Of a stretch of 64,000 bases of DNA, positions 18,126 through 56,518 are shown one piece after another. Under the pieces are notes generated by a model. It searched no databases, was not told the DNA's origin, and saw nothing but the letters and a program-made list of their open reading frames with translations. The position numbers were made by a program, and so were the translations under genes. The stretch is taken from positions 32,001-96,000 of the forward strand of contig JANNVQ010000057.1 in assembly GCA_031414535.1 (NCBI GenBank), in the 5' to 3' direction. How positions within the stretch are numbered: position 1 is the first letter of the stretch; each line of letters begins with the position of its first letter. Source of the DNA: Gemmatimonas sp. (lineage in GTDB: Bacteria > Gemmatimonadota > Gemmatimonadetes > Gemmatimonadales > Gemmatimonadaceae).

Positions 18126-18127
18126 AA

Positions 18128-40716: not shown

Positions 40717-40959
40717 CTACGTCGCGGACACCAAGTCAATGAGTTCCTCAACTTCGAGCCCCAATCCGTTTGGCTCATCGGTAGGGTCCAATCCCCGCTC
40801 AATGAGTTCAGCGCTCAAGAGATCCAGCAGAAGCTCACGACCCTCAGCTAAGAGTCCTCCGCTCGCAATTGCATCCACATGAACGACTGCGTCAGCGTTG
40901 CGCCGCTGAATGATCTCTGCTAAGCGGCGAAGTTGCTGTGGGGTAGCACGTATACTCAT
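40717..40959 (-). CDS. Putative immunity protein for cassette L3
   Basis: ATGA overlap with the toxin-tip stop. Small acidic protein (GLDPTDEPNGLGLEVEELID). Confidence 0.72.
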   Translation of the reverse strand: MSIRATPQQLRRLAEIIQRRNADAVVHVDAIASGGLLAEGRELLLDLLSAELIERGLDPTDEPNGLGLEVEELIDLVSAT

Positions 40960-41495
40960 GGCACGATTCTCCACGCGCCGCGGCTCAGCGCCATTGTGGT
41001 GACGACTTCGCCGTCTGTGTTCAGCACCACTCGCGCGTTTCGGCCGACATAGAGCACTTTTCCGCCCTCTTGATGAAGAACTCTTAGGGGATTGGCGACC
41101 GCGTCTCGCATCGCCGCCTGCGTGACTCCGACACCTTCGCGTGATATTGCCTGATTCAGTCCGTGCCGGGTGAATCCCGGGATTTTGCCGCCGATTGGGA
41201 CGTTGAAGACGGCCTTGCTGGCACCCGGGAACTGATCTTCATTGAGTGCCTCAAAGAGCGAGGCGAACGCTCCGAGTGTCTTATTGACCGCACTCGAACC
41301 TCTGCCGGATGCGTTGCGATGCGCCCACCACCCGGATGAACCACGCGGGCAGTCGGACACCGCTTCGGTCTTTCCGTCACCGCCCGCAGACTTTGGGCAC
41401 AGCCCAAACGGATCCGAGAAGTTGACCGGGTCCCCGCCCGCGAAGCCATACGCATTCAGCCCACCCGCCAGCCCGATTGGGTCAAGGTGCGTGGA
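40956..41495 (-). other. Orphan Rhs toxin tip L3 (putative RNase, colicin E5/DUF4258-like)
   Basis: Frame STHLDPIG...DPFGL then CPKSAGG...GFTRHGLNQAISREG...VVLNTDGEVVT. In-frame TGA five codons upstream and no proper start. Confidence 0.78.
41400..41495 (-). repeat. Rhs junction repeat, copy 1
   Basis: Reverse complement reads TCCACGCACCTTGACCCAATCGGGCTGGCGGGTGGGCTGAATGCG...GATCCGTTTGGGCTG. Confidence 0.95.
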
Positions 41496-41555
41496 CTGTC
41501 CAGTAAATCAATCGTACGTTCAGGTCGCGGTGCACCGCAACCGTGCCTCGGCGCG

Positions 41556-41960
41556 CTACGGCGCGATGACCTTCACCGTCGGGAAGTAGGTCCGATAGCG
41601 CGCCGCATCTCGCGTCAGCAGCGCGTGGCCGCGGATCGCGGCGTGGGCTCCCACAAAGAAGTCCGGAAGTGGCGATCGCCTGGCTCCACCCGATCGCCGA
41701 TATCGCTGGAAGCATTTCCCCGCGAGGAATCCAGCATCCCAGGGGAGCGCGTCGCGTCGGAAGAACGTCGGCGGCAGTGCCGCCTCAAGATCCTCAATCC
41801 GTGCGAAGCCGACCGAGACCTCGGCATAGATGATCGGATTGATGATTAGGGCCTCCGATTCGGCGGCACGCGCGAGGGCGTCGGCCGACCACCGGAGCCA
41901 CGTCGGGTCCTCGGTTAGCACGTCCAGCAGCACGTTGCTGTCCACCAGGACGCCCGGCAT
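41556..41960 (-). CDS. vapC: VapC-like PIN domain toxin
   Basis: VLVDSNVLLD, IIYAEV, LPDFFVGAHA and LLTRD PIN motifs. Confidence 0.9.
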   Translation of the reverse strand: MPGVLVDSNVLLDVLTEDPTWLRWSADALARAAESEALIINPIIYAEVSVGFARIEDLEAALPPTFFRRDALPWDAGFLAGKCFQRYRRSGGARRSPLPDFFVGAHAAIRGHALLTRDAARYRTYFPTVKVIAP

Positions 41961-41964
41961 GCGC

Positions 41965-42192
41965 CTACTCGCCGCGGGTCAGCGCGAGAATCTCGTCGGT
42001 ACTCATCGGCACCGTGCTGCGTCCCCGAAGGTGCGCGACCAGCTTGGCGCCGCGTCGCCGACTGCGCCGCAGCTTGCGCAGCACGGCCTGACCGTCCTCC
42101 ACGACGAACTCGACTTCAGTATTCGGCAACAAGCCGAGGCGTTCGCGCACTTCGACCGGGATGGTGACCTGGCCCTTCGTCGTGATTTTCAT
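41965..42192 (-). CDS. AbrB/MazE/SpoVT family antitoxin
   Basis: MKITTKGQVTIPVEVRERLGL motif, 4 nt upstream of the PIN gene. Confidence 0.92.
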   Translation of the reverse strand: MKITTKGQVTIPVEVRERLGLLPNTEVEFVVEDGQAVLRKLRRSRRRGAKLVAHLRGRSTVPMSTDEILALTRGE

Positions 42193-42213
42193 TCGAATCG
42201 CCCCCCATGAGAT

Positions 42214-42310: not shown

Positions 42311-42850
42311 CTAGCCCTCGAAGTTTCGAATGCGCCGAACAACCCAGGAGCTGTGCCGTGTGCGGCTCAAGTCGACGACGAAGAATCCCCCCATCGTCCT
42401 TGGCGCGTCGAAGTACACGATGGCTTCAAGCACGGCTGCGGACGTCATGCTGCTATCTCCGACGAGTGCCAAGGCAACTGAAAGTGTATCCGATGTCTCT
42501 CCACGGACCCGGAAGCCGGATGAGACGAACAGCTTCGCTGGCGATCGACTTGCTAGTCGAAAGCGAGATCCGATCGTGGCGATTGCCGACATCTTGTTTG
42601 CTTGGAACGGTGCCACCACAGGCGCGCGGCCGATGACGGAGTCGACAACGATCACTCTACAACCCATCTCCGCGCAAAGTGAGTCGAGAGGAGCCGCTCG
42701 GAATGCGGTCGCTGCCGCTGCAACTGCAGCGGCCTGGGGTGACAATGAGGTGCGATCGACTGTTGGTCCGATGCGACAGGATGCGGTGAGCAGCAAGGAG
42801 GCCGCGAGGAGTCGCAGCGCTCGGCGGTCAAGGGTTGCGAAGGCAGCCAT
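42311..42850 (-). CDS. Putative lipoprotein immunity protein for cassette L2
   Basis: MAAFATLDRRALRLLAASLLLTASC lipobox. The start overlaps the end of the toxin tip. Confidence 0.7.
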   Translation of the reverse strand: MAAFATLDRRALRLLAASLLLTASCRIGPTVDRTSLSPQAAAVAAAATAFRAAPLDSLCAEMGCRVIVVDSVIGRAPVVAPFQANKMSAIATIGSRFRLASRSPAKLFVSSGFRVRGETSDTLSVALALVGDSSMTSAAVLEAIVYFDAPRTMGGFFVVDLSRTRHSSWVVRRIRNFEG

Positions 42851-43334
42851 TCGGCACTCCTTGGAAAGGTTGTTCGCAGTGCGCGTACTTGCTGTTGCGT
42901 TCGACGATCCCACTCAGATGAGTAGCCTCGTGCCACGCAATTCCGCCAATCCCGCTCCGCCTCGTCTCGCGGTGTGATGGTCGGACGTGCGCAACGCCGC
43001 GAGCGCCTCCGAACCGCTTTCCAATCTCTCCCATCAAGCCGACGTCGTCGTCGCGATCGAACGACCAACCGCTTCCGTAGCAGAGCTGGCCGCAGCCCGC
43101 GTCGTCGCTGTCGAACAGCACGAACAGGTCGGGTGATTGCTCCAGCTTGCTAAACGTCGCATCTGCTTCGCTGTTCGACTTGCGTATTCGAGCAACCTCC
43201 TTTTGGAGGCGCTCGCCAACAATCTTTAGGTCAGCGGCGAGCCCGAACGGATCGTCGAAGTTGACCGGGTCCCCACCCGCGAAGCCATACGCATTCAACC
43301 CACCCGCCAGCCCGATCGGGTCAAGCTGCGTGGA
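42828..43334 (-). other. Orphan Rhs toxin tip L2 (putative HExxH zinc metallopeptidase)
   Basis: STQLDPIG...DDPFGL followed by a unique domain containing WHEATH. Confidence 0.78.
43239..43334 (-). repeat. Rhs junction repeat, copy 2
   Basis: Reverse complement TCCACGCAGCTTGACCCGATCGGGCTGGCGGGTGGGTTGAATGCG... Confidence 0.95.
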
Positions 43335-43387
43335 CGGACTCGGACCTCATTTCTCGCGCGCAGTCGAGGGACCGGCTGATCGCACGG

Positions 43388-43816
43388 TCAACCGATTGAA
43401 ATCACCAGCCCCTCGGGAATCGAGAGTCTTGCCGTGGTCCCGTCCCCGGCAACCATTACCCACTCAGGTCCCTCCGCACAACCCGCTGTCTCTAACACCG
43501 AATCGTCATCAAACTTCAACGCTAGCGCACCCACCAAATCGTCGGCCTCGACTTCGACTATCCGACGCCCGGTCAGTTTGGCGACTGCTGCACGTAGCTG
43601 GCCGGCTTTACCACCCAGCATCTCACTGGACGCCAAAATGCTCGCTCCGCGTCGCCATCGCCAGCAATCCTCAAGCACGATACGCCACGATGTATCAGAG
43701 GGAGACGAGGCGGCATCAAACACCACCCGCAGTGCAGACCCGATGGGATTCGAAGCGACTACGCATTGCAAACCTACGGCCTTCTGGAGCATGCGCGTGA
43801 CGGTAATGGACGTCAT
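43388..43816 (-). CDS. Putative immunity protein for cassette L1
   Basis: ATG directly follows the toxin-tip TAG. 142 aa, no signal peptide. Confidence 0.72.
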   Translation of the reverse strand: MTSITVTRMLQKAVGLQCVVASNPIGSALRVVFDAASSPSDTSWRIVLEDCWRWRRGASILASSEMLGGKAGQLRAAVAKLTGRRIVEVEADDLVGALALKFDDDSVLETAGCAEGPEWVMVAGDGTTARLSIPEGLVISIG

Positions 43817-44263
43817 CTATTCGTGCTCCCGGTCTGTGTATTTCCGTTGCCTGCACAACTCCGTTGCCTCTTCGACGATGTCGTTGAACGAGACTGCTCC
43901 ATCTGCCCCGGCTCTGGTATCCAGCTCATCCACTCGCTTATAGAGTTCATCGCGCCCAGTGTCATTGAGCCTGCAGCTCATTCGGCGCTCGGCCTGTCGA
44001 ATTGCATCTCGGTATTGCTTGTTCTGCCTTGTGTTAGAGGCGAACTCAAGCACTAACGCACCGGTCACCGCTATGGCACTGGCAACGACGGCCCGAGCGA
44101 CGAGACGCAACAGATGGGCGCACGCGAAGGAGACGGGAGGAACAAGGCAAACCGCGGGAATTGCCAGTGTACCGTAAGGATCCGAGTAGTTGATTGGATC
44201 ACCATCCGCAAACCCATAGGCATTCAGTCCCCCCGCGAGCCCAATCGGGTCAAGCTGCGTGGA
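43817..44263 (-). other. Orphan Rhs toxin tip L1 (hydrophobic segment plus Ntox28-like helical RNase)
   Basis: STQLDPIG...DPYGT, a hydrophobic stretch, then NTRQNKQYRDAIRQAE...FNDIVEEA, reminiscent of Ntox28. A possible weak TTG start lies at 44272. Confidence 0.75.
44168..44263 (-). repeat. Rhs junction repeat, copy 3
   Basis: Reverse complement TCCACGCAGCTTGACCCGATTGGGCTCGCGGGGGGACTGAATGCC..., with a more diverged 3' half. Confidence 0.93.
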
Positions 44264-44395
44264 TGGACCCAACCTTAAACACTTCCATCATGGCTAGCTC
44301 GAATTGCGGCTAATGAAGGGCGACGAGAATAAGTTGGCTCGCTCGGTTAACGGCAAGGTGGCGAAACCACACTCAATCGATGGGCCAATCTCTGA

Positions 44396-44716
44396 CTACA
44401 ACTCACGTCGACGATTCTCTTCATCAAAAAGGTCCGCAATGAGTTGCTCGAGTGGCGGCCGCACACTCTGTGCGTGAGGGCCAATGTGCTCGAACAGCTC
44501 TCCTCCCAGCTCCGCCAAGTACACCCGAAGCGCGTCCGCGCGTTGCGCTTCGCTGACGTGGGCGATGCGCTCTATCGTCTCCGCTGCATGAGTCAAGCCA
44601 GCGTGGAGGTCCGCTAGATGATAGGCGACATCGTCTCCGCGTGGCGATCCCAGTAGTGCGCGAAATCGAAGATGAAGCAGCTCTCGGAGTTGCTTGTTGT
44701 CGGCAGATGAGGGCAT
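44396..44716 (-). CDS. Putative cognate immunity protein of the currently fused Rhs tip
   Basis: ATG 7 nt after the rhs stop with a GAAGGGA RBS. 106-aa helical protein MPSSADNKQ... Confidence 0.75.
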   Translation of the reverse strand: MPSSADNKQLRELLHLRFRALLGSPRGDDVAYHLADLHAGLTHAAETIERIAHVSEAQRADALRVYLAELGGELFEHIGPHAQSVRPPLEQLIADLFDEENRRREL

Positions 44717-44723
44717 TCCCTTC

Positions 44724-47700
44724 TCAAGCTTCCAGTGGAGGAGTGACAGCATCCAGTCGGCTTTGCCAAGCGTCGACTTGCTCCTTGTAGCGCGCATTCG
44801 TGCGGCCCTTCATGCTTTTCAAGTGGTCTCGAGCTTGGTTAATCCATCCTCGAATCTCTCCACGGTGATGATTCGCATCTCTAGCACCGGGATCCTCTCC
44901 AACGGCGCCGAGATGGCCCTCAATGTTCGCTCGCAATTGTTCGATTTTGCCAATTGCCCAGCCTTGTGCACCACTCGCCAAGACAAGCCCGTCCGCGATT
45001 GCCCCTAGACGTGCACCGAAAGCGGCTCCCGCACTAACGCCGGCTGCCCCTCCCGGAATGGCTCCAAATCCAGCGCCAGCGATGAAGCCGCCACCGCCGC
45101 CCGTCATACCTCCCATCAGCGCTCCCGTAATCGCGCCCACGGAGGTCCAGAATCCTGGGCAGTCGCGGGGATCGTTGTCCCGTGGGGGACACAGTCCAAA
45201 CGGGTCCGAGAAGTTGACCGGATCCCCACCAGCGAAGCCGTACGCATTCAGCCCACCCGCGAGCCCGATCGGGTCAAGCTGCGTGAACTGTCCCGTCGTC
45301 GGATTGTAGTAGCGGTTCCGCAAAAAGGTCAGGCCCGACGCGTCACGCCGACCACGCACCAAACTCCCGAACCAGTTGCTAAACAGAACCGGGTCGGCGC
45401 CTACGTCTCTTCGGTACGCGCTGACTGAAGCAGCTAGCCACTCCGTCGGACAGCGCCCCGGCGTGAACGTCGTGCAATTCGTCCCATCTGCCAGATTGCC
45501 AAAAGCAATGTCTCCACGCCAACCGGCCTGAGGCGTCAACGTCGTCCAGCCGGAGTCGGGCCGGAGCTTCGCAAGATGAGCCGGCGCATCGACACCCAGT
45601 CCGTGCGCGTAAAGCACGACGCCAAAGAGCAGTGGATAGGTCGGGTCCGTCCAGCCACTCGTCGTGCCATCCTGCGCCGCGATGCCCTCGCCCTCTAGAA
45701 CGGCAGCCGTCGCGTTCGCTTGTCCGCTGCTGCGGATCTCCGCTAACACTTGATCGCCATCGTAAACAGTTCGCTCGATGTATGCATCGCAGGGGCTCGA
45801 GCAGGTCGGCTCGATCTTTCTCACGCGCACGAGGACGCGCCGTCCAAGCGCGTCGTAGCGGTACTCACTCGACGTTCCGGCGACGCCATTCACGCCTTCA
45901 GCGTCTTCATGCGACATCAGTCGTTCATCGGCGCCGAAGTAGGAACGTGCGTTCCGCAGTACGGTCGATGCATCCGACAGATTGGTGCCGCGCGTGTCAC
46001 GCTCTGCGGTCGAGGTGACGTTCCCGCTGGCATCGTGCTCCAGCGCCAGCGACCAGATGTACCACGAGGGGTGGCACGAATGCACGAGCGAGGTGGCGCA
46101 GTTGCTTCCAGTATCGGCGAGCACGCCGCCGGTGAGACGGAGACCAGAGAACGTGTGGCGACGGGTACGATTGATTCCCGCTACCATATCTACATCGTGT
46201 GTGTAACGAAGCGTGCCGATGCCGTCTACCAAGAAGGCCTCGCTGCTGAGTCCGCTGGCAAGTCCCGTGACGCTCGCCAACGCACCAAGTCCAGCATATT
46301 CCAGCGACACCGGCGTGTCACCAGAACTGACGCGAATGACTCGCCCACCTGCGTCGTAGCGCAGCGTGTCAGCGGCCGGGTGACCACCGCTTCCGACCCG
46401 GCGCAACACCCTGCCCTCGCGGTCGTATGCAAGGTTGAGAACCACGCTCCCTGGCGCCGTCGTGCTCGTCAGCTGCCCTGTAGCATCGTAGGCGTAGGTG
46501 GTCTGCAGCGTCCCACCGCTAGCGCTCGGATGCGTCAGTGTGGCAAGCTCACCGCGAGACGAGTACGCATACTGCTGCAAGCAGGCACCGCTACAGGGAT
46601 CAAGCTGGGTGGGTAGCGTCAGCGAGATGCGGCGCCCGAGGTGATCGTAACCGTACTGCAGTTGATACGAATGCGCGTTCCAGTCGCTCCCGGTCTCACT
46701 GAACGCGCCGGCGTGCCGATCGCCGCCTCCGCAGGCGTTCGGAGCCTCCGTCGCATACTTCCTGATGATCTGCGTTTCGGAGAGCAACGCACCATTTGGC
46801 GCGTAGCTTCGCCGTATCCGCGCCCAATTATTGTCGGCTACTCTTGTCTGCCCAGACGCATCGTACGCGAACAGCGCCGTATCCACGCCTATGCAGCGCG
46901 TAGACGCATCATCTAAGATGGGAAAGGTGTAGGTGCAGAGAGTTCCGTACCAGTGACACAGCGCGTTGCCTTCGCTCGCGGATGGCGTCACGCGTCGCGT
47001 GAGGCGATTCAGCGCATCGTACTGCATCGCGATGACGAATCCACGGGGCTTAGTGGCCTCAATGACGTTTCCGCTGGCATCGTACGTCGAGTAGTTTGCC
47101 CCACCGCCCGGCTCCGACGCCAACGTCGCGCGGCCGAGCGAATCGTACTGCCATGTTGCGACAAGGGTGTCGCTTGCCCCTGCCGTGGCTCCATTGACCG
47201 AGAAGCGCCGGCGGTGCTGCGTAACTCGTCCCATGGCGTCGTACACTTTGCTCACTCGCACCCAGTCGGCGAGGATGATGCGGCCGTTGGCCAGCGTATC
47301 CACCGGTCCCCGCGTTACCTGCGCGCTATCGCGTCCGAGCGTATCGTACCAAATTGAGTCCACAACTCCGTATTGCACAACTAAACTGGAGTCGGTGCCT
47401 CGGGATCCGGTATCGCGAGGCGTGTACAGCCGGACGGGCCTCCCGACATTGTCATTCACCGACAAGGAGACGAAGCCAAGTGGCGATACCGTCTTGCGGA
47501 GATTGCCGCGCTGGTCGTAAATGAAGGTTGTAACGCCGCTGTCAGGCTGAGTAATCGAGAGCGGCAGACGCGCGCCGGATGCCGTGGTCGTATACGCGAA
47601 GGTCACCCGAGTCGTACTGCTGCCACCGCGTTGTTGCCAAGCGAGACTGGAGTCACTGTTGTAACTAGCGACGGCCAAGGTATCGAACTTGGTGATATCC

Positions 47701-49985
47701 GCCGCAGCGCCGGAGCGTGCCCTTATGCGCTCAATGCGGTTCAGCGTGCTGTGCCATTCGTATTCCGTTAGCGCATTACCGCTCGCACTTCCCGACGCGC
47801 CTCCATAGGGAGCCAAAGTGGCTACCGAGTCGACCAAGCCCCGAGAGTCGTAGCTTGCAACGGTACTTAGCCGCGTCGGACTAATGACGCGTTCGGGGAG
47901 CCCAGCCCAAGCTGTTGAATAAGTTATCTGTGTCTCGCGTCCAAGGGCATCGCGGAGACGAACTACGGAGCCGTGGCGGTTTACCCACATCCTGCTCTTA
48001 TCGGCGACATCGCTCCGAGGACCGTCAACCTGTGTAAATGTCGAATCGAGTGCAGTGGGGGTCCACCCCTTGGACTCGCTCGGTTCGATTGCCAGGACGT
48101 TGCCGAGTGGTCTCGTCGCCGTGATGACGCGCCGCGCAGAATCGAAAGCAAAAGTGGTCCGCGCCCCGGCTCGATCGCTGATGGCGTTGATCTCATTTGC
48201 GTATGGTGAGGACGCATACTCAAACCGCGTGGTATCCCGATCGGGATCGATGATGCGCGTCAGCCGCCCGCCTGGACGAAGTAGGATCGTTACGCGATTG
48301 CCGGGAGCCGTTATCGTCACCGAATCGCTGGCATATGCGAAGGCGTACTTCATCGAATCCACGAGCGATAGTGACGTGTCCGCAAGCGGGAGATGCATCG
48401 CCAACAGAGAGTCAGTGGTACCCGCATACACGAAGCGCGTTACGTGCCGGTCAATTGTGCGTGTGGAATCGTGACGTCCGGCCGAGTCGTAGAAGACGCG
48501 CGCATGCTCCGCTGTGTGCCGAATGTACGTACTTCCCGACTGCGTGATGCTGTCCGGGAGCGCGAAGGCGGTCGGGACCTTCCACACGCTTCCCGACTTC
48601 ACGTATCGGCGCACACTTCCATCGCCACCAATCCACAACAGCTCTGTAGAGGATCGAATCCGGAGCCGCTCAAGCCCGGCAAGCCACCATCCCGCGCCGA
48701 AGCGCGAGGCACTGTGGTTCACGATATACAGACGGCCCGTATCCGCACTCGTGTGCGACTGATTGGAGGATGTGAACTGCACGCGATACCGGTACATTCC
48801 GGTAGCCACGGTACAGCCACTAAACGGCACAACCACGCGCCGAACATTTCCTGCTGCTCCCCAGGCCGTGCCCGCTGTGCTGCGACTTCCACAAGTGGCG
48901 GACGTATCCGTACGCACAATGGAAGTCGTGCCGTCGGTCGGTAGACCAATATCAGAGCGAAGACGAATATCCGCTTGCACCAATGGGATAGGCCGTGCAT
49001 GCGCTGAGTTGTAGAGCAGGACCGGAGCTCTCGTGCGACCCATCGTGCGAACACTCACTAACGCGTGTACGATTCGTAAGTCGCCGCATTCGCTCGCGGC
49101 ATGTGGCGTGAGCGCGATAGTGACGCATGCGTTGCGCAGCAGATAGTCGCCTGCGCCAGGCGCATGACCGAAGAGATAGGCGCCAACAGCGGGAGCGGCC
49201 GTAACCGTGATATCCGTCCACGCGGAATCCCTGATGGCGGTCTCCGCTGAGCGAACCGCAAGCAGTCGCAGCAGTCCTGACGCGCCGTTGCTGTCCGACG
49301 CCGTGTAGCTCACAGTCACCGTCGAGCTCGCGCCGGCGGCAAGTGCGCTAATGGTAGAGCTCGGTGTAATTGTGCAGCTCGCGTAGATCGCGCCGGACGG
49401 ACAACCGATCGCTGTCAGCGCGAAGGTAGCGGTATCGTTGCCTGTATTGGTGACCGTAAAGCGCTCACTGCGTGAGGCTGACGGGAGGGCCTCGACGAAG
49501 CCTTGCTCGGATACGACGGCCACCGACCGTCTCGCAGCTGGCGGAAAGTAGGTCTTGATGCTCTGGTAGAAGTAATCGCGAAGGCTGTAGATGTGAGCGT
49601 TTACAATCACCGGTCCTGTGGTCGGAGTCACGCTGACCGTTCCTACCCACTTCACAAACACTTCGTCTGACTGATTCCCGAAGAAGTTGCACTCCGCTGG
49701 ATCGGCATTCTCCATCGTGAAGTCGCCAGTGACGTCCACGTAGCTGGCGGAGGTGGCGTAATTCCAAGTTCGAATCTGGATGGTGGCGAGGTTGATCATG
49801 TTGTCGCCGGCTTCGTAGGCGCAGGCCAGCACCGTCACCGTTACTGAGCCACTCAGGACCACGGACGACAGCGAGGGAGAGACAGTAAGCGTTGGCTCCG
49901 TCTGTGCGCTCGCCTGCGGTGCGAGACTGGCGACGAGCGCAGCCGATGCGGTAACGCGCATCAAGTGTCGGGCAATAGTTCTCAT
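44724..49985 (-). CDS. Full-length Rhs/YD-repeat polymorphic toxin with Sec-type signal peptide
   Basis: 1753 aa. Signal peptide ...LAPQASAQ, Ig-like N-terminal region, many YD repeats (YDAMGR, YDALNRL, YDALGRR) and core end RYYNPTTGQFTQLDPIG...DPFGL, followed by a variable tip. Confidence 0.95.
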   Translation of the reverse strand: MRTIARHLMRVTASAALVASLAPQASAQTEPTLTVSPSLSSVVLSGSVTVTVLACAYEAGDNMINLATIQIRTWNYATSASYVDVTGDFTMENADPAECNFFGNQSDEVFVKWVGTVSVTPTTGPVIVNAHIYSLRDYFYQSIKTYFPPAARRSVAVVSEQGFVEALPSASRSERFTVTNTGNDTATFALTAIGCPSGAIYASCTITPSSTISALAAGASSTVTVSYTASDSNGASGLLRLLAVRSAETAIRDSAWTDITVTAAPAVGAYLFGHAPGAGDYLLRNACVTIALTPHAASECGDLRIVHALVSVRTMGRTRAPVLLYNSAHARPIPLVQADIRLRSDIGLPTDGTTSIVRTDTSATCGSRSTAGTAWGAAGNVRRVVVPFSGCTVATGMYRYRVQFTSSNQSHTSADTGRLYIVNHSASRFGAGWWLAGLERLRIRSSTELLWIGGDGSVRRYVKSGSVWKVPTAFALPDSITQSGSTYIRHTAEHARVFYDSAGRHDSTRTIDRHVTRFVYAGTTDSLLAMHLPLADTSLSLVDSMKYAFAYASDSVTITAPGNRVTILLRPGGRLTRIIDPDRDTTRFEYASSPYANEINAISDRAGARTTFAFDSARRVITATRPLGNVLAIEPSESKGWTPTALDSTFTQVDGPRSDVADKSRMWVNRHGSVVRLRDALGRETQITYSTAWAGLPERVISPTRLSTVASYDSRGLVDSVATLAPYGGASGSASGNALTEYEWHSTLNRIERIRARSGAAADITKFDTLAVASYNSDSSLAWQQRGGSSTTRVTFAYTTTASGARLPLSITQPDSGVTTFIYDQRGNLRKTVSPLGFVSLSVNDNVGRPVRLYTPRDTGSRGTDSSLVVQYGVVDSIWYDTLGRDSAQVTRGPVDTLANGRIILADWVRVSKVYDAMGRVTQHRRRFSVNGATAGASDTLVATWQYDSLGRATLASEPGGGANYSTYDASGNVIEATKPRGFVIAMQYDALNRLTRRVTPSASEGNALCHWYGTLCTYTFPILDDASTRCIGVDTALFAYDASGQTRVADNNWARIRRSYAPNGALLSETQIIRKYATEAPNACGGGDRHAGAFSETGSDWNAHSYQLQYGYDHLGRRISLTLPTQLDPCSGACLQQYAYSSRGELATLTHPSASGGTLQTTYAYDATGQLTSTTAPGSVVLNLAYDREGRVLRRVGSGGHPAADTLRYDAGGRVIRVSSGDTPVSLEYAGLGALASVTGLASGLSSEAFLVDGIGTLRYTHDVDMVAGINRTRRHTFSGLRLTGGVLADTGSNCATSLVHSCHPSWYIWSLALEHDASGNVTSTAERDTRGTNLSDASTVLRNARSYFGADERLMSHEDAEGVNGVAGTSSEYRYDALGRRVLVRVRKIEPTCSSPCDAYIERTVYDGDQVLAEIRSSGQANATAAVLEGEGIAAQDGTTSGWTDPTYPLLFGVVLYAHGLGVDAPAHLAKLRPDSGWTTLTPQAGWRGDIAFGNLADGTNCTTFTPGRCPTEWLAASVSAYRRDVGADPVLFSNWFGSLVRGRRDASGLTFLRNRYYNPTTGQFTQLDPIGLAGGLNAYGFAGGDPVNFSDPFGLCPPRDNDPRDCPGFWTSVGAITGALMGGMTGGGGGFIAGAGFGAIPGGAAGVSAGAAFGARLGAIADGLVLASGAQGWAIGKIEQLRANIEGHLGAVGEDPGARDANHHRGEIRGWINQARDHLKSMKGRTNARYKEQVDAWQSRLDAVTPPLEA
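45192..45287 (-). repeat. Rhs junction repeat, copy 4 (inside the full-length rhs gene)
   Basis: Reverse complement TTCACGCAGCTTGACCCGATCGGGCTCGCGGGTGGGCTGAATGCG...GACCCGTTTGGACTG. Confidence 0.95.
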
Positions 49986-50231
49986 CTTGCGTTGCTCCGC
50001 ATTCGAGTGAGGTCTATGGTGCGCCGTTCGTTTTCAATGCTCGTGCAGGTACAAGCGTTGTCAAGCGCACGTTCATGGCGATGACCCACTCACGTGAGCT
50101 TGGTCACGGCGACAGAAATGCGACAGCAACGGCAGTGCGCGCCGCTGATGGGACGAGACATGTGGAGACAGCATCGACGATGCTTTCCAACGCGTTCGCG
50201 CGATTGTTACTATGATTCTTGCATGAGCCAC

Positions 50232-50327
50232 TCCACGCAGCTTGACCCGATTGGGCTGGAGGGTGGACTGAATGAGTACGGCTTCGCTGAAGGCGATCCA
50301 ATCAACTTTTCGGATCCGTTTGGGCTG
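50232..50327 (+). repeat. Rhs junction repeat, copy 5 (inverted relative to rhs)
   Basis: TCCACGCAGCTTGACCCGATTGGGCTGGAGGGTGGACTGAATGAG...GATCCGTTTGGGCTG. Confidence 0.95.
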
Positions 50328-50717
50328 TGTCCTAAAGCGGCGGGAGGCGACGGGAAGACGGAGGAGTACTCCGACTGTCCTCGTGGAAGTTCCGGATACT
50401 GGGCTCATCAAAGCATGCAGGGAAACGGCGGGTTGCTCACTGAGGTGCGCGGTACCACTGCATCATGCGATGAGAGCACGGCGTGCTTGGCCGTCGCGAT
50501 TGCTGGAGGCGCGTATGTCGGGACGCTCGTTGCCGTCGAAGCCGGGGCATCTAGGCTGGCCGCTACAGCGCTTGCGCTGATGCAGTCGAACAGATACCTC
50601 CGCATCGGCGTCGGACGACATAACGGCAGGCGTGTATTTCGGGCTGCGGGCAAACTCGTGCAGAAGATCAAGAAGGACGGTCACATCGACTTCTGGGACA
50701 TGGGGCCTCTACCATGA
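50232..50717 (+). other. Orphan Rhs toxin tip R1 (hydrophobic segment plus small basic domain, unknown activity)
   Basis: STQLDPIG...DPFGL CPKAAGG...NRYLRIGVGRHNGRRVFR...GHIDFW. An in-frame ATG lies at 50223. Confidence 0.78.
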
Positions 50718-50989
50718 CAACCGAACTTTCGGACTTTCAACGAGACGCGCTCGCCGATATTCGAGACGTCCTGAAGGATGCCGGTCGCTCATCCGAGTCG
50801 GAATCGGTGTTGGGCAACCAGGAGAAGTACGTAGCGATTGCATTCGGCGGCTACAAGGCCCTACTGTACGCGGACGGGGCTGAGTTACTCGGCAACGGGC
50901 TGGATCGCCGATTCGAGAAGTACGATTTCGACTCCCTGGACGACCTTCGCATTCACTTTATTCTCGAGCTGCGCCAGTTAATGACCTAA
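50714..50989 (+). CDS. Putative immunity protein for cassette R1
   Basis: ATGA overlap. 91-aa acidic protein paired with a basic tip. Confidence 0.75.
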   Translation: MTTELSDFQRDALADIRDVLKDAGRSSESESVLGNQEKYVAIAFGGYKALLYADGAELLGNGLDRRFEKYDFDSLDDLRIHFILELRQLMT

Positions 50990-51070
50990 CCCGCCGGGTT
51001 CTGCCTTGGCGCGCCGGCGCCATCGGCATGGGCCCTCGCCGCTCCGCTGTAAGCTCAGCCGTCGCGTCCA

Positions 51071-51166
51071 TCCACGCAGCTTGACCCGATCGGGCTGGCG
51101 GGTGGGTTGAACGCGTATGGCTTTGCGGGTGGGGACCCGATCAACTTCTCGGATCCGTTCGGGCTG
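51071..51166 (+). repeat. Rhs junction repeat, copy 6
   Basis: TCCACGCAGCTTGACCCGATCGGGCTGGCGGGTGGGTTGAACGCG... Confidence 0.95.
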
Positions 51167-51634
51167 TGCCCCCATGACCCAGCTCGGCCATGTCCTGCTT
51201 GGACGGGAGCCAAGGCCGCGGCTGTCGTCTCAAGGTTGGCAGATTGGGCTTCGAACATGGCCGTACTGCCGAGCATCACCGTTACAGCCGGGCCCATACA
51301 GGCTGAGTTCAGCGCGGACGGAGTGGCAGTCACCGGCAGTGCACAGATGGCGCTTGCGCTGACCCTCAACGGGACGGTCGGGCGGGGCGCAGGGGAACTC
51401 GGGACCCTTTCAGTCGGCGGACTGGTCGGGACAGGATTCGTCGGCGGAATGACTGCAAGTTTCGACGCCAAGTCCAAGAATCTTGAAGGAGTGACGTACA
51501 GCATCGGCATTGGCTTTGCCTTGCCTGTCGCGAAATCGATGGAGTTGTCGGATGCCGGCGCGAAGCTTCTTTCCGGCGCCGGTACGGTGGGTGTTGGACT
51601 GGGCGAAGGAAGAATGAAAGCGAAGAAGCAATGA
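51071..51634 (+). other. Orphan Rhs toxin tip R2 (Gly-rich, possibly membrane-active)
   Basis: After DPFGL comes a Gly/Ala/Val-rich amphipathic sequence with no catalytic motif. In-frame TAA seven codons upstream of the repeat. Confidence 0.75.
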
Positions 51635-51918
51635 CCAAGAAATTTCCGTTCAACGACGGCACCGACGACGTGCCTCTGCGGCTCATCGCCACGATTCCAA
51701 TCTGGATGCTGCGCGCAGCGGTGGGCGGCGTAGCTGGTGTCCGGATGTTTGTGCTTGTACTGGCCGTCGATGGGCTGCTGATTTTGGGAACTTGGATAGC
51801 AATCGCGCCATCTGTGCGCTCGAATTCCGAGGTGGGCAATCCCGCCTCAGGAGAGCGGTTCGTACTTTTGCCGCTGGTCTTGGCGGGAGTGTTGACCTTG
51901 TTCGACTTGTTTCCGTGA
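51631..51918 (+). CDS. Putative membrane immunity protein for cassette R2
   Basis: ATGA overlap. 95 aa with 2-3 hydrophobic helices. Confidence 0.68.
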   Translation: MTKKFPFNDGTDDVPLRLIATIPIWMLRAAVGGVAGVRMFVLVLAVDGLLILGTWIAIAPSVRSNSEVGNPASGERFVLLPLVLAGVLTLFDLFP

Positions 51919-51988
51919 CTTTGATGTCTGTCGTCGGTGCACACGCACAGTACCCCAGCGGCACGCCTACTGGCACTCATTAGGATAG

Positions 51989-52084
51989 TTCACGCAGCTT
52001 GACCCGATCGGGCTCGCGGGCGGGCTGAATGCGTACGGATTCGCGGGCGGGGATCCGGTCAATTTCTCGGATCCATTCGGGCTG
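51989..52084 (+). repeat. Rhs junction repeat, copy 7
   Basis: TTCACGCAGCTTGACCCGATCGGGCTCGCGGGCGGGCTGAATGCG... Confidence 0.95.
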
Positions 52085-52543
52085 TGTCCACAAGACGTGA
52101 CGGGAAAGCCATGTCAGAATCCGCTGGGCAATCTGGCGCTGAACGTGAGGCCCGGCATAGGAGGATTCGAGCTGAACTCGCAGCGTACGGCGGGCGTTCA
52201 CGGCGGCATCGACTTACTCGCGCCCAAGGGCAGCGATGTGACGGCCGCTTCTGACGGAGTGTTTGAACGACGAAGCGATCCCAACGGGCTTGGTGATTAC
52301 GCCGTCGTGTGGCACGGAGGGAGCGCAACGGTATACGGCCACCTCTCGGGTTTCGCAGACGGGCTCCGAACGGGCGATCGCGTTCGCGCAGGACAAGTCA
52401 TCGGCAAGACGGGTGACAGCGGGAACGCGAAGGGAACGCCTGACCACCTTCACTTCGAGATTTGGACAGACTTCAAGACGGTTGGTCGAGGTGGGACAGC
52501 CGGCCGACGTGACCCAGAACGTGAACTTCGTAAGGCGCCGTGA
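51989..52543 (+). other. Orphan Rhs toxin tip R3 (M23 family peptidoglycan endopeptidase)
   Basis: HGGID, YGHL, GQVIGKTGDSGNA and HLHFEI M23 motifs. In-frame TAG immediately before the repeat. Confidence 0.88.
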
Positions 52544-53109
52544 AGAACAATCTTACGTTGACTAAGCGAGCAGTTGTGCTTCCTCTGCATTTGCTGTTGA
52601 TGAGCGGAGCCGGTTGCGATAGAGCACCTGCGCCTGCGGCGGCACTGCCGCAGAGAACTGAGTTCGCGGTGCAGTTCGATTCTACCGTCGGTGCGGACTC
52701 CACCGGACTTCGATCCGCGCTCATCGCATTTGGTGACTCGCTCCACCTGACTCACTTTCAGGCAAGCATCAGTCAGTTCGGTGGCGCTCCTACGAGATAC
52801 TTCGCGTTTCTAATTGGTCCTCCGGCGTACAAAAGCGGAAACGTTCAGTTCGCGTTGCTCACTGCGCGCGATGGGGCCTTTGCGGTGAAGGACCTTTTCG
52901 ACACGGGCGTCCCGTCCGGTCCAGTAGGTATCGCACTCGAGGCACTCGCTGACTTCGACTCGGACGGTCTTCCCGATGCGCACTACTGCGACTTTAGTTT
53001 GGCCAGTGACTCCACTCCGGTATCGCGTGTGCTGGGATACGGAGGCGCTGGATGGTATGCTGTTCAAACTTCGAAGGCGGTTCGATGTCGAGCGGACACC
53101 AGTCGCTAA
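52540..53109 (+). CDS. Putative lipoprotein immunity protein for cassette R3
   Basis: GTGA overlap and a lipobox-like LLLMSGAGC. Confidence 0.72.
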   Translation: MKNNLTLTKRAVVLPLHLLLMSGAGCDRAPAPAAALPQRTEFAVQFDSTVGADSTGLRSALIAFGDSLHLTHFQASISQFGGAPTRYFAFLIGPPAYKSGNVQFALLTARDGAFAVKDLFDTGVPSGPVGIALEALADFDSDGLPDAHYCDFSLASDSTPVSRVLGYGGAGWYAVQTSKAVRCRADTSR

Positions 53110-53361
53110 TGCGAGCCGCTGCACTGCCTAACCTTAAGTTCTGCTGCAGCGGCGCCGGCGCTGGCAGCAGCGACTCGGGTTCGGCGGGTCGTCTCGGGTT
53201 CGCTCGCCAACGTGTGCCCCCGCGACAACCCCATTGGTCGGGTCGAATCGGCGCGGGGTTTGCCGGACGCTCGATTGCTCAATCGCGCCCCGCCCCCTCC
53301 GACACACACACAGCGCGTACCGACTCGACTCGCGCAGAAGCGGACCGCCCGCGAGCCGTGC

Positions 53362-53946
53362 TCAGCGCGGGGTCAAACAACGCGCGAGCAAGTCGCTGAC
53401 GCCGAGGACGGGGGCCCATCGATTCAAGACCGTGCGGTCGAGTGCGTCCTCCTGCAGCGCGACAATTGCCGCCACGTCGCGCCACTGGCGCTCCGAGACC
53501 TCGCCCCCCCGGCGGTACCATTCCAGCTTGCGCAACAGTGTGTGCTCGGCGGTGTCGAGCCAGAGCGACCCGGTCGCTGGCGGGGGCACGGGCACCGCCA
53601 CCCGCGTGCGCAGGCGCTCGTGATCAAACGCGTCATCTCCCGCCACGAACACATCAACCTTCACCCCGGCCTGCAGGTGCACGAGGTTGAAGGTTGTGCC
53701 GAGGCGCACTGCGTCGCGCGCAGCGTCCGCGTCCACGTAATAGTCTCGCGCGAGCGCGGCGACGACCCGACTCACGGTGCTGACGCGGAGGTCAGCGACG
53801 AGATCCACATCCAGTGTGGCGCGTGGTTCGCCATGGACCGAGCTCGCGAGCGAGCCGCCAATCACATACGGGACGGCGGCGGCCTCAAGCTGCTGCGCCA
53901 CGTCAAGCGCGACCGCGAGGACGTCGAGTTTGGGCGGCGGAATCAC
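53362..53946 (-). CDS. Nucleotidyltransferase-fold protein (putative TA-like component)
   Basis: IGGSLASSVHGEPRATLDVD motif and KLEWYRRGGEVSERQWRDV. GTG start overlaps the partner's stop. Confidence 0.78.
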   Translation of the reverse strand: MIPPPKLDVLAVALDVAQQLEAAAVPYVIGGSLASSVHGEPRATLDVDLVADLRVSTVSRVVAALARDYYVDADAARDAVRLGTTFNLVHLQAGVKVDVFVAGDDAFDHERLRTRVAVPVPPPATGSLWLDTAEHTLLRKLEWYRRGGEVSERQWRDVAAIVALQEDALDRTVLNRWAPVLGVSDLLARCLTPR

Positions 53947-54194
53947 CGTGGGGAGCGCGCATACGCGCGCGCCGCGAGTGCGGAGCCGAGCCGGCGCTCG
54001 ATGGCCGCGCGCTCGAGCTCCTCCAGGGCGAGCGTCGGCCGGCGGTGGCGTAACCCCTCGAGTTCCAGCCACAGCACCATCGCCGAGACATCGCGTACCA
54101 GCGCCAGCTTATCGGTCGACGACAGCGCGCGCCACGCAGCTCGCTGGCGCGCAGCGGCGTCTGGAGTGGTGTCGAGGAGGTGGCTGGAGCGCAT
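53943..54194 (-). CDS. Small helical partner of the nucleotidyltransferase
   Basis: 83 aa, DTTPDAAARQRAAWRALSSTDKL...GLRHRRP. GTGA-coupled to the NTase gene. Confidence 0.7.
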   Translation of the reverse strand: MRSSHLLDTTPDAAARQRAAWRALSSTDKLALVRDVSAMVLWLELEGLRHRRPTLALEELERAAIERRLGSALAARAYARSPR

Positions 54195-54295
54195 GCTGTA
54201 AAGGTCGCGCAGATGCTGGGGGTCGCGCCACTGGTCTGGGCGGCGGGCGCAATTGCCGTCGGTCGACGCGCGGTTATGATTGGGGAGCGGGCCCA

Positions 54296-54391
54296 TCCAC
54301 GCAGCTTGACCCGATCGGGCTGGCGGGTGGGTTGAACGCGTATGGCTTTGCGGGTGGGGATCCGGTCAATTTCTCCGATCCGTTCGGGTTG
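54296..54391 (+). repeat. Rhs junction repeat, copy 8
   Basis: TCCACGCAGCTTGACCCGATCGGGCTGGCGGGTGGGTTGAACGCG... Confidence 0.95.
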
Positions 54392-54865
54392 TGTCCGCCT
54401 GAAGAGACAGGGCGGCCCTGCACTGCGGGCGGTGTCGACTACAGGAGTGTTCGGGGAAAATCGACCGCCGTCCCATCAATGGCGACGTATGTCAGTTCGT
54501 TGGCGCGCGATCTCGGCTATCACATCGTAGTGACGAGCGGAGATCGTGACCGCGTCCCAAGTGGCGGAGCGACTACCAGCAACCATTTGATTCCTTCAAT
54601 GAATCCATCTCGAACAGGAGCGGTCGACTTTAAGGCATACACGCCGAATGGGCAGATGGTGCCGATGGGCAAGCTGTTTAGTGAGTCGCTGGACGCCGCA
54701 TCAACCGAATCCAGTCACGCACGCCTGATTTGGCACGACGTTGGCACAGTGACGGGTACGCAGCACCTGCATGCGGACAAGAGCACCGATGGCCACCGCT
54801 ATGAAGCGGGAGAGAAGAACACGAGGGGCAGAGCTGTTTACCGGCCCGTCGGGGGCAAGCCATGA
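54296..54865 (+). other. Orphan Rhs toxin tip R4 (M15/Hedgehog-DD-peptidase-like)
   Basis: VTSGDR...SNH...AVD...HLHAD pattern matches M15-type zinc peptidases. Confidence 0.75.
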
Positions 54866-55449
54866 TGCGGAACTCGACACTTGGCATGCTTGTTCTCGGA
54901 GTCTTCTCCCTGATTGGGTGCACAACCAAAGAAGAGCCCGCCAACCGCAGCGGTGCCAGCCAAGAATCTGCCGCGGACTGGATACTCGACTCTGGTCAGT
55001 TTAGGAATCGAACGTCACACCGGGTTGAACCTGTTCCAAGCAGTCTTCCGGAAAACATCTCCGCGCTGGAGGATGTGGATGGTCCCGATGGTACAGAGTT
55101 GTACACCTACATCTTGCTTGGCTCTGATACGGTGGGCGTCTACTTGTGGTCCACAGCACGAAGACTCGAACGACTCCGAATCCTAAGCTCCCGAGTGCAC
55201 ACGCCCAGTGGTGGCCACGTCGGCCTGACCGCTACGGCTCTTGCAGAGAAGGTGGGAGAACTCGAAGTGATAACTACTGAGGAGGGCGTGCTCGTTTGGG
55301 GCACGCGAGATCGCGAGTTCAGCTTCGTACTCGGCGCTGGAACGCAGCCGCGCGATAGCAGCGTTTTGAGGTCTCAAGGCTTCGTTGCGAGCGACACCGT
55401 CCAGATGATTCTTTGGTCGCGCAATCGGGTAGCGCGACAACGCAAGTGA
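54862..55449 (+). CDS. Putative lipoprotein immunity protein for cassette R4
   Basis: ATGA overlap and lipobox VFSLIGC. Confidence 0.75.
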   Translation: MMRNSTLGMLVLGVFSLIGCTTKEEPANRSGASQESAADWILDSGQFRNRTSHRVEPVPSSLPENISALEDVDGPDGTELYTYILLGSDTVGVYLWSTARRLERLRILSSRVHTPSGGHVGLTATALAEKVGELEVITTEEGVLVWGTRDREFSFVLGAGTQPRDSSVLRSQGFVASDTVQMILWSRNRVARQRK

Positions 55450-55567
55450 TGAGGGTCGATACTAGGCGGCTCACGGTATGAGGGCAGGGAGTTGATCCGT
55501 GAACATGGCGTTAGTGTCGTCGCGTTCCGGGGCAGCACTGAATGTTTTTCCGCGAGTGCCCTGTTGC

Positions 55568-56518
55568 TCACCCCGCGGGATGTGTTAGCAGGTGTACCTT
55601 CTGCAATCGCGCGACCGACACGTGCGTGTAGATCTGCGTGGTCGTCAGTCGCGTATGCCCGAGCAGTACCTGCAAATCGCGAATGTCCGCCCCAGCGTCG
55701 TGCATCAAAGTTGCCATCGTATGGCGAAACACGTGGCAACTGCCTCGTCCACGGATGCCTGCCGCATGCAACCGCGCTTGGCATAGCGCGGTGAGCGTCT
55801 TCGGCGTCAGGCGGCCCCCGTGGCGACCGAGGAACAGCGCGGGCTCATCGACCGACTTCGAGCATCGAATACGAGCCGTCGCCACATAATTCATGACTGC
55901 CACGACAGCACGCTTGCCTACCGGAACAACGCGCGACCTCCCGCCCTTCCCGCGCCGTATCCGTACCAGGCCTTCCTCACCCGCAAAGTCGCACACATCC
56001 AAAGCGCACACCTCCGCGCGGCGCAGCCCGGACGAGTACATCAACTCGAGCATCGCGTGATTGCGCACCCCAATCGCTGACCGTCGCGGCACGGCAACGA
56101 GTACTCGATCCACCTCATTCACCGACAACGTCGCAATTGGCGGACGCTCAGGAATGCGAATCGATGGCAGTTCACTCCAAAGGTCTCCGGCAATCAAGCC
56201 ACCCCGCTGAAGCCAACGAAGAAAGGCGCGAAGCGCACCGACATCCTTAGCAACCGTTGAACGGTCCACCCTGCCGCCGCTTCGCGTCGAGCGAGTCTGA
56301 AGTCGGCCCAACAGAGACTCGATCACTCCCAGGTTAAGCTCGCGCGGAGCCACAACTCCGAGCACCGAGAGCTCTCGGGTGATTCCGCGGAGTTGCACCG
56401 CTCGAGTGCGAACTGTGCTCGCTGCGCTGCCCATCGCCACAAGGTGCGCGAGGAAACGCGGCACTGACTCTTGAAGAGTTGGGTCAGTATCTAAATGTGC
56501 CGCCAACGCGCTGCGCAC
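55568..56518 (-). CDS. Tyrosine recombinase, XerC/XerD family
   Basis: Complete catalytic set: SGLRRAE (R), GKGG (K), HVFRH (HxxR), LGH and TTQIYTHV (Y). N-terminal SAM-like domain, 316 aa. Confidence 0.93.
   Translation of the reverse strand: MRSALAAHLDTDPTLQESVPRFLAHLVAMGSAASTVRTRAVQLRGITRELSVLGVVAPRELNLGVIESLLGRLQTRSTRSGGRVDRSTVAKDVGALRAFLRWLQRGGLIAGDLWSELPSIRIPERPPIATLSVNEVDRVLVAVPRRSAIGVRNHAMLELMYSSGLRRAEVCALDVCDFAGEEGLVRIRRGKGGRSRVVPVGKRAVVAVMNYVATARIRCSKSVDEPALFLGRHGGRLTPKTLTALCQARLHAAGIRGRGSCHVFRHTMATLMHDAGADIRDLQVLLGHTRLTTTQIYTHVSVARLQKVHLLTHPAG

Follow-up and report, generated by a model that had tools for sequence, protein, structure and literature searches.

How does a bacterium gain access to alternative tips for its Rhs toxin when these tips lie, without start codons, on both strands around the toxin gene? 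This question is raised by a locus at positions 40717 to 56518 of the window, as we call the whole stretch of 64,000 nucleotides (nt) analysed here (Gemmatimonas sp., assembly GCA_031414535.1, contig JANNVQ010000057.1, positions 32,001 to 96,000). The host is a soil/sediment bacterium, and the source is a 3.7-Mb metagenome-assembled genome with a completeness of 98.4%. At the locus, an rhs gene stands between two oppositely oriented arrays of tip cassettes, and a gene for a tyrosine recombinase lies beyond the last cassette. Comparison of these elements with those in relatives suggests that the bacterium probably changes its toxin through cutting and inversion of DNA at a single exact position. 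In our estimate, the balance tips somewhat in favour of the locus being a site-specific cassette-exchange system for the Rhs toxin that, in the geometry found here, inverts the core of the toxin gene.

Junction repeats and the cassette boundary

The rhs gene (44724..49985, minus strand) encodes a protein of 1753 amino acids (aa) with a Sec-type signal peptide, YD/RHS repeats and an Rhs-associated core. It matches RHS_repeat (E 3.7e-34) and TIGR03696 (57.4 bits, cut-off 32.5), identifying the locus as one for an Rhs/YD-repeat polymorphic toxin. The junction at 45186-45284, between the core and the currently fused tip (44724-45185), recurs at the start of each orphan cassette. This junction repeat is 99 nt long and codes for the last 33 residues of the Rhs core; its product, T-Q-L-DPIGLAGGLNAYGFAGGDPVNFSDPFGLC, is the end of the Rhs-associated core domain and includes the PxxxxDPxGL motif. 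A repeat search of the window detected eight copies, four on the minus strand (41395-41504, 43234-43343, 44163-44272 and 45187-45296, the last in rhs) and four on the plus strand (50224-50338, 51063-51177, 51981-52095 and 54288-54402). Among the 17 inverted pairs in the window, 16 pair one repeat with another at 78-92% complementarity, and the seventeenth is an unrelated 33-nt match. A DNA search and a six-frame scan with a hidden Markov model (HMM) detected no ninth junction copy in the source genome. The number of repeats, their division into four per strand and all coordinates given for them in a preliminary description of this DNA hold in the repeat search and the genome scan.

In-frame translation of all eight copies gives TQLDPIGLAGGLNAYGFAGGDPVNFSDPFGLC with few substitutions. 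We refer to the orphan cassettes on the minus strand as L1 to L3 and to those on the plus strand as R1 to R4; PVNFSDPFGL is present in six of the eight copies, L1 has PINYSDPYGT and L2 has PVNFDDPFGL. The codon register is identical across all eight repeats. Therefore, a crossover between the rhs copy and a plus-strand copy would invert the core together with the 250-nt upstream region and create an in-frame fusion; the preliminary description, which had proposed this geometry, was correct in this respect. As it had also stated, each repeat precedes a different tip and a coupled small open reading frame (ORF), and this is borne out by comparison of the ORFs and tips. The seven orphan copies lack a start codon, and in five of them a stop codon lies 4-12 codons upstream of the Asp of DPIGL. 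Four of the seven lie on the opposite strand, upstream of rhs. The G+C content (GC) of the cassettes is 57-69%.

The cassettes share an exact boundary. When 72 distinct junctions of recombinase-linked loci, representing at least six genera, are aligned by codon, homology starts at one base, C|ACGCAG. The C at position -1 is present in all 72 junctions while the rest of that codon is variable; ACG is likewise present in 72/72, and the following codon is CAG or CAA (CAR) in 71/72. The codon after CAR is free between loci and mostly uniform within a locus, where it is the same as in the neighbouring rhs gene (CTT in the window, CCG and CGC in the two loci of genome G111), and is followed by GAC CCG ATY GGG. 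Among the orphans of the window, mean pairwise identity is 27% at positions -60 to -31, 42% at -30 to -1, 82% at +1 to +99 and 35% at +100 to +111, and about 35 nt of decayed core-like sequence lie ahead of each orphan junction.

As a control, we analysed 12 array loci of recombinase-less Gemmatimonadaceae genomes, chosen by eye from a genome listing showing strands; no tyrosine recombinase was found in these 12 loci. Their short-frame orphans retain a variable number of in-frame core residues, from 54 to 388 (22 junctions, 11 of the 12 loci), as expected for homologous recombination. In the window, the longest exact run shared by an orphan and the rhs copy is 18-34 nt, located at the 5' edge in six of seven orphans, and identity over the 99 nt is 74-90%. 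Judged from these values, the junction repeats are likely a poor substrate for RecA.

Over 32 junction codons, synonymous divergence (pS) is 0.455 and non-synonymous divergence (pN) 0.063 (pN/pS 0.14), indicating purifying selection. Since the differences are mainly synonymous, the copies have not been homogenised by gene conversion and are kept as coding sequence, a pattern that would fit periodic expression as part of a fusion. Moreover, in genome G117 a core-attached tip is 100% identical to that of an orphan 21 kb away, with nucleotide identity that begins at ttc|ACGCAA and is interrupted by one mismatch at +18. This match marks a recent event whose breakpoint fell on the proposed site.

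Dyad symmetry around C|ACGCAG was considered as evidence of a binding site. By eye, inverted heptamers are perfect in one G111 locus (G111B) and match at 6/7 positions in the window; only some cores have them, in partial form, and because the Gly...Asp-Pro codons produce them, this candidate was rejected. Separately, the orphans of two loci in genome G028 (L024, L025, L028) share an element of about 60 nt upstream of the junction that contains a pair of short GC-rich hairpins and, immediately ahead of ACGCAG, a stop codon, with 85% mean identity at -60 to -31 in locus c5. The window has no conserved counterpart of this element (27% identity).

A recombinase subfamily beside Rhs tip arrays

The recombinase gene (55568..56518, minus strand) converges on cassette R4, the end of which (55449) is 118 nt away, and is intact, as the preliminary description had noted. 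Its 316-aa product matches Phage_integrase with E 4.8e-35, and R166, K191, H262, R265, H288 and Y297 do not vary among 13 aligned homologues. All of its 10 NCBIfam matches are below the respective cut-offs, and XerC/XerD-type models are the best of them. The scores (196.4 vs a cut-off of 335 for XerC, 194.2 vs 329.6 for XerD) indicate that the enzyme is not the XerC/XerD chromosome dimer resolvase, and the source genome, which encodes five tyrosine recombinases, has better XerC/XerD candidates on contigs C7 and C30. The integron-integrase model TIGR02249 gives 86.6 bits vs a cut-off of 265, indicating that the enzyme is not of the IntI type; an IntI-like gene lies on contig C31. DNA-invertase models of the FimB/E type score 53-59 bits vs cut-offs of about 221, and the 10 NCBIfam matches include no Rci-type match. 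The phylogeny is a quick tree, in which the recombinase subfamily is set apart from the Xer-like paralogues of the genome with a support of 99 in the Shimodaira-Hasegawa-like approximate likelihood-ratio test (SH-aLRT). The ORF directly upstream of the recombinase gene (56518-57660) was tried as a relative of the primases described below and rejected (BLASTP against two primases, E 0.31-1.9); it encodes an anti-sigma-like protein and lies next to a gene for an extracytoplasmic function (ECF) sigma factor.

Members of this subfamily, which are 41-46% identical to the enzyme of the window, adjoin an Rhs tip junction (within about 3 kb) in 13 of 15 Gemmatimonadaceae loci, the window included. By genome, the copies that do so are 2/2 in G111, 3/3 in G117, 3/3 in G028, 1/1 in each of G008, G225 and G241, and 1/2 in G201; the other of the two misses, in G102, is on a contig of only 3.5 kb. 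By contrast, none of six XerC/D-like paralogues, with 34-39% identity, lies within 10 kb of a junction in G111, G117 and G008, for which all junction places were listed. In a sample of 201 Gemmatimonadaceae genomes, the tally of which includes the unpublished genome G093, Rhs_assc_core was detected in all eight recombinase-positive genomes vs 83 of 193 recombinase-negative genomes (91/201 overall). Moreover, an independent collection scan found junctions in 10 of 12 Gemmatimonadota recombinase loci. No flank synteny was detected between the locus of the window and those of relatives, and in view of this lack of common flanking genes, the linkage between recombinase and array is not inherited synteny. 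In total, the comparisons strongly support that the recombinase is dedicated to Rhs tip arrays, as had been suggested in the preliminary description.

The orientation of the arrays also differs with the recombinase. Among Gemmatimonadota loci with at least two junctions, 8 of 16 that are recombinase-linked have junctions on both strands vs 0 of 9 recombinase-free loci (Fisher one-sided about 0.012; the loci are not independent, as several come from one genome). The mixed-strand loci are the window, G111A, G111B, c5, c6 and c8 of G028, L038 and L044. In G111A and G028 c6, the core is followed by the recombinase and then by 5-8 inverted tips; in G028 c5, six plus-strand tips, the recombinase and two minus-strand tips follow each other; and in L038 the sites alternate around the recombinase, as in the plasmid R64. 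The design of the window recurs in G111B, where rhs and an array of 11 tips occupy opposite strands and a recombinase gene converges on the array from the far end. Two of the eight loci, from the same genus, have R64-like geometry. The mixed-strand geometries match those of known inversion switches. At G028 c8 (L026, 5657-9828, minus strand; L027, 6091-10233, plus strand), the array on the recombinase side mirrors the one attached to rhs; the same five tips are present in reverse order with 76-100% aa identity, and several frames are shorter on the rhs side.

The proposed exchange and rival explanations

In the mechanism that we propose, the 5' edge of the junction repeat would be the target of the Xer-like recombinase, in the region of the invariant C|ACGCAG and, after it, GACCCGATYGGG, with CACGCAG and GACCCGAT as candidate parts of the site. 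The cassette unit would consist of junction, tip and immunity ORF. As the last 33 core codons are repeated in every cassette, an exchange would give an in-frame and still processable toxin. Recombination between the site in rhs and a right-hand site would invert a segment of about 5-10 kb that contains the core and the 250-nt upstream region, fuse the core to one of R1 to R4, and leave the former tip among the left-hand orphans; L1 to L3 would become reachable by a further inversion. The data show the anatomy of the locus, the linkage of the subfamily to Rhs tip arrays, the exact boundary and the confinement of mixed-strand arrays to recombinase-linked loci; we infer that the recombinase binds at this site, that it inverts DNA beyond integrating and excising it, and that switching is frequent enough for a programmed switch.

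Four of seven sequencing runs that a search retrieved were compared with the locus in the form of assembled Logan contigs (k=31). An independent contig of 5838 nt spans 45260-51097, i.e. the core end, the rhs start and R1 up to R2, another spans 43305-45285, and the same contigs are present in a second sample. For rhs and R1 at least, the inverted arrangement is no product of the assembly. In run X2, contig depth over the fused tip and its immunity ORF (44088-45255) is 1.7-2.1 vs about 5-7 elsewhere in the locus; this dip could stem from differences among strains at the tip, contig depth being a poor measure. A strain with an approximately 94% identical core, from another habitat (run X3), lacks R3 and the whole left array and has two other continuations at the rhs junction, so that cassette content turns over between strains. 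No close strain variant was found in metagenome contigs searched with the last 400 core residues (five loci, best identity 49%).

Several observations weigh against the proposed exchange. The contigs end at six of the eight repeats and contain no strand-changing joint, which cannot show that such joints are absent. The second strain has the same adjacency of rhs start and R1 (contig 49945-50251) and the same arrangement of R4 and recombinase. The recombinase-less relative G017 has ACGCAG in its only Rhs gene, too; the invariance of the motif alone is therefore no proof of a site and may partly reflect lineage history. Similarly, the purifying selection on the junction could have been inherited from donor genomes. 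In the quick and unfinished tree, the recombinase of the window is on a long branch (1.13; best identity 46%). Finally, the wider family often has another setting: in 69 of 98 scanned loci, a DnaG-type primase of about 1000 aa, with zinc ribbon and Toprim, is encoded directly ahead of the recombinase, the primase-recombinase units are often tandem or multicopy with co-oriented cargo, and in an Acidobacteriota clade the tips have no Rhs core within 10 kb, so that a simple shufflon does not fit there.

This wider family, retrieved by a collection scan with the alignment of 13 homologues, has more than 575 members in many phyla. The cargo behind the recombinase includes RHS fragments and Tlde1, AHH, SUKH-1, Imm11 and glucosaminidase domains, and one Bryobacterales chromosome contains the primase-recombinase unit in multiple copies. 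The family thus looks like one of mobile elements carrying polymorphic-toxin cassettes. The window lacks the primase, as do G111, G028, G008, L038, L048, L054, L060 and the well-supported Acidobacteriota clade, in which paired Rhs tips on opposite strands, often convergent, come right after the recombinase. The orphans of this clade (L065, L074, L082, L094, L101, L109 and L111) start at another conserved motif, TACTACCGCGCCAGATACTACGA, coding for YYRARYYD. Tandem units of 7-11 kb, also present in L056, L069, L083, L100 and L110, comprise an endonuclease V-like gene, a helix-turn-helix (HTH) gene, the primase, the recombinase, a small ORF and a toxin tip; in L104 (Fluviicoccus keumensis, 4743-18999), the unit of 7128 nt is repeated with 7126/7128 identical positions and has its left end within the 3' portion of an rhs-like gene. 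In L070 (Erwinia psidii, 5706-10900), a PT-VENN (CdiA-type) orphan lies nearby, upstream of the unit, and the genes that adjoin the primase-recombinase pair in other phyla also encode AHH nuclease, Tlde1, SUKH-1 and Imm11 domains (L091, 11006-12367; L074, 12122-12613; L082, 12509-13378; L092, 11766-12389). The element family seems tied to polymorphic toxins generally and not to Rhs alone.

With these data, three other explanations can be set beside the exchange by inversion. An enzyme whose relatives are elements with linked primases and co-oriented cargo may chiefly integrate and excise cassettes. Thus, the system could be integron-like or a mobile element only, in which the recombinase captures and excises tip-immunity cassettes with the core end as attachment site, the inverted arrays are rare by-products or fossils, the core is not regularly flipped, and new tips come to the core through inserted cassettes; the recombinase would then be the integrase of elements that formerly had a primase. 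The frequent primase, the tandem and multicopy units, among them the one of L104 with its end in an rhs-like gene, the toxin cargo in other phyla including PT-VENN, the co-oriented half (8/16) of the recombinase-linked Gemmatimonadota loci and the cassettes missing in run X3 all speak for it. Integration of the Campbell type, however, gives direct repeats only and leaves the mixed-strand loci (8/16 vs 0/9) unexplained, mixed orientation is mainly found without the primase (7/10 primase-less vs 1/6 primase-bearing loci), and an active enzyme at inverted sites would invert the DNA between them. We regard this explanation as the main rival, but as rather unlikely. The locus could also have arisen by ordinary Rhs C-terminal displacement through homologous recombination, with the orphans as old tips, the right array as the remnant of a divergent rhs gene or of an old RecA inversion, and the recombinase as an unrelated neighbour. 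Recombinase-free orphan arrays behind rhs are indeed common in the family, and both the decayed core-like sequence before each orphan junction and the ACGCAG of the recombinase-less genome are compatible with such an origin. It does not account for a subfamily that adjoins Rhs junctions in 13/15 loci when its paralogues do not and no flank synteny makes this linkage a shared accident, nor for a boundary that is fixed with the recombinase and variable without it, and exact identity to the rhs copy is limited to 18-34 nt; we consider it distinctly improbable.

The last alternative is that contigs were misjoined across the approximately 100-nt repeats, so that some of the cassette order or orientation is unreal. 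The k=31 contigs stop at L3, L2, the rhs junction, R2, R3 and R4, and the joins at these places are neither confirmed nor contradicted. Against this explanation stand the two contigs that span 45260-51097 and 43305-45285, both recovered again in the second sample, and a 13.6-kb contig of the approximately 94% identical strain that joins the R4 tip, the recombinase and the flank. Moreover, exact shared runs are at most 34 nt, which is below read length, and other species whose assemblies are near-complete (7 contigs for G111, 20 for G028) have the same architecture. A misassembly is very improbable on this evidence. Returning to the cassette exchange that we favour, we tentatively extend it to a broader proposal: Xer-like recombinases across phyla would use the junction codons of polymorphic toxins (Rhs, possibly CdiA) as their site and would usually be paired with a DnaG-type primase on small elements with toxin tips and immunity genes, and in at least two primase-less lineages (Gemmatimonadaceae genus g1 and the Acidobacteriota clade) they would have become a resident multi-inversion switch, which in the window would flip the 5-kb core and its promoter between the two opposed arrays, with eight tip-immunity pairs reversibly reachable and no loss of DNA.

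Cassette genes, known systems and implications

The frames of the tips extend for about 115-155 residues past the junction, and all seven orphan tips are open. When the tips of the window are compared with one another, no pair reaches E<=1e-10 over 60% of the length. Tips L3 and R1 (41318-41498 and 50229-50409) have about 28 common residues past the junction, CPK[SA]AGGDGKTE..SDCPRGSSG.WAH, and then diverge; this may be a shared linker or pre-toxin segment. Only R3 among the eight tips has a family match above cut-off (Peptidase_M23), and the toxin and immunity roles are predicted ones. The small ORF overlaps the tip stop in five of eight cases (ATGA or GTGA), starts directly after it in one and 10 nt after it in one, and is ambiguous in one.

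On the right, all on the plus strand, R1 (50235..50989) consists of the junction at 50235-50333, a tip to 50717 and a coupled ORF at 50714-50989 (ATGA overlap), and R2 (51074..51918) of the junction at 51074-51172, a tip to 51634 and a coupled ORF at 51631-51918 (ATGA overlap). R3 (51992..53109) has its junction at 51992-52090, the Peptidase_M23 tip to 52543 (E 3.6e-20) and a coupled ORF at 52540-53109 (GTGA overlap). R4 (54299..55449) has its junction at 54299-54397, a tip to 54865 with a weak Peptidase_M15_3 match below cut-off (E 0.042), and a coupled ORF at 54862-55449 (ATGA overlap). The 1.2-kb spacer between R3 and R4 (53110-54298) includes the highest GC of the window (0.686 for 53001-54000), and its ORFs on the plus (53212-54201) and minus (53362-54072) strands have no Pfam or NCBIfam match.

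On the left, all on the minus strand, an ORF (44396..44716) that begins 10 nt after the rhs stop is the candidate cognate immunity gene of the currently fused tip. Orphan cassette L1 (43817..44260) contains the most diverged junction copy (44162-44260, with 74% identity to the copy in rhs) and then the tip ORF; its candidate immunity ORF (43388..43816) starts directly after the tip stop and has a weak DUF6188 match below cut-off. L2 (42828..43331) has its junction at 43233-43331, then the tip ORF, and a candidate immunity ORF (42311..42850) with an ambiguous start. L3 (40956..41492) has its junction at 41394-41492, then the tip ORF, and an in-frame stop 8 codons upstream of the DPIGL Asp; its candidate immunity ORF (40717..40974) has no family match and a likely ATG start at 40959 that overlaps the tip stop (ATGA). 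Between L3 and L2 lies a vapBC-like pair (41556..42192, minus strand) of a PIN gene (41556-41960, E 6.3e-08) and a MazE/AbrB-type antitoxin gene (41965-42192, MazE_antitoxin E 1.7e-11), which resembles a cassette without a junction repeat. 

The 249-nt interval between the rhs start and R1 (49986..50234), the last 35 nt or so of which are a decayed copy of the core end, would move with the core on inversion. A simple scan, uninformative for this phylum, detected no sigma-70-like promoter in this upstream region. PF05943, the sheath family of type VI secretion systems (T6SS), was not found in the source genome, and given the completeness of 98.4%, the usual T6SS context was dropped for this rhs gene. 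A 1.8-kb contig (C4 of G000) contains at 824-1075 a second, diverged Rhs-associated core match (E 4.5e-18) that the junction HMM missed and that may be a piece either of a further Rhs gene or of a different organism.

Inversion switches of related design are known. In type I restriction hsdS shufflons, Xer-like invertases swap 3' gene halves by inversion at coding repeats. The sfx sites of R64 are asymmetric, with one conserved and one variable arm, and the site in the window similarly has a conserved part, C|ACGCAG, and a coding arm. In the R64/ColIb-P9 shufflon, the Rci recombinase acts on sfx sites to exchange pilV C-terminal segments (PMC3414803). Both systems have a tyrosine recombinase beside several short sites on both strands and a constant N-terminal part with alternative in-frame C-termini. 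The preliminary description had read the locus as an Rhs shufflon of this kind; our comparisons uphold its geometry and its dedicated recombinase. The NCBIfam scores place the enzyme among Xer-like recombinases and not in the Rci family. Also unlike R64, the site lies inside 99 nt of protein-coding repeat, the cargo consists of toxin-immunity pairs, and the predicted inversion would flip the constant part (the 5-kb core and the promoter region) instead of the variable segments.

Rhs C-terminal displacement and orphan rhs-CT/immunity arrays were reportedly described by Jackson in 2009. In such canonical arrays, the orphans are co-oriented downstream of rhs and their core remnants differ in length. 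Like these arrays, the locus has a full-length Rhs with the PxxxxDPxGL demarcation, polymorphic tips, adjacent immunity ORFs and promoter-less and start-less orphans with the core end; unlike them, its orphans keep a fixed 99-nt remnant, over half of them (4/7) lie on the opposite strand upstream of rhs, and a recombinase is linked. In a term search of Poole 2011 (PMC3150448), neither inversion nor recombinase nor integrase was found. In the bee-gut bacteria Snodgrassella and Gilliamella, integrase-like genes recurred in the vicinity of Rhs loci, and a helping role in the capture of Rhs sequences was proposed for them (Steele 2017, PMC5727410); the sections of this paper that we use describe no site, cassette boundary, orientation pattern or inversion. 

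Arrays named rAID, for recombinase-associated acquired interbacterial defence, said to have been described originally by Ross in 2019, and integrons are further points of comparison. In integrons, a tyrosine recombinase (IntI) acts on promoter-less cassettes bounded by a short site (attI/attC). Unlike these, the sites in the window are coding and not folded attC sites, and what the cassettes carry is the C-terminal part of a single giant toxin. For the rAID arrays of Bacteroidales, the excerpted account reports a predicted tyrosine recombinase at the edge of short polymorphic-toxin-system genes with conserved motifs between the genes (bioRxiv 10.1101/2025.05.03.651265). As far as this account goes, they are co-oriented, low-GC orphan immunity genes that are defensive and have no resident toxin core; the locus in the window, by contrast, has full tips with an in-frame core end on both strands around a full-length rhs gene, in Gemmatimonadaceae. 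No Rhs shufflon, Rhs-junction recombinase or primase-recombinase toxin element was found described in the literature searched, which did not cover subscription journals.

Tip exchange in Rhs and other polymorphic toxins has so far been attributed to homologous recombination that occasionally takes place with copies of orphan or foreign origin. If the proposal is correct, a dedicated recombinase acting at a coding junction would make tip exchange programmed and possibly reversible, as in a toxin shufflon or integron, would account for the intactness of start-less orphan tips, and would provide a defined enzyme and a site of about 25 bp. Moreover, the primase-recombinase units with RHS, AHH, Tlde1, SUKH or VENN cargo in many phyla would represent a new vehicle for the horizontal spread of interbacterial toxins.

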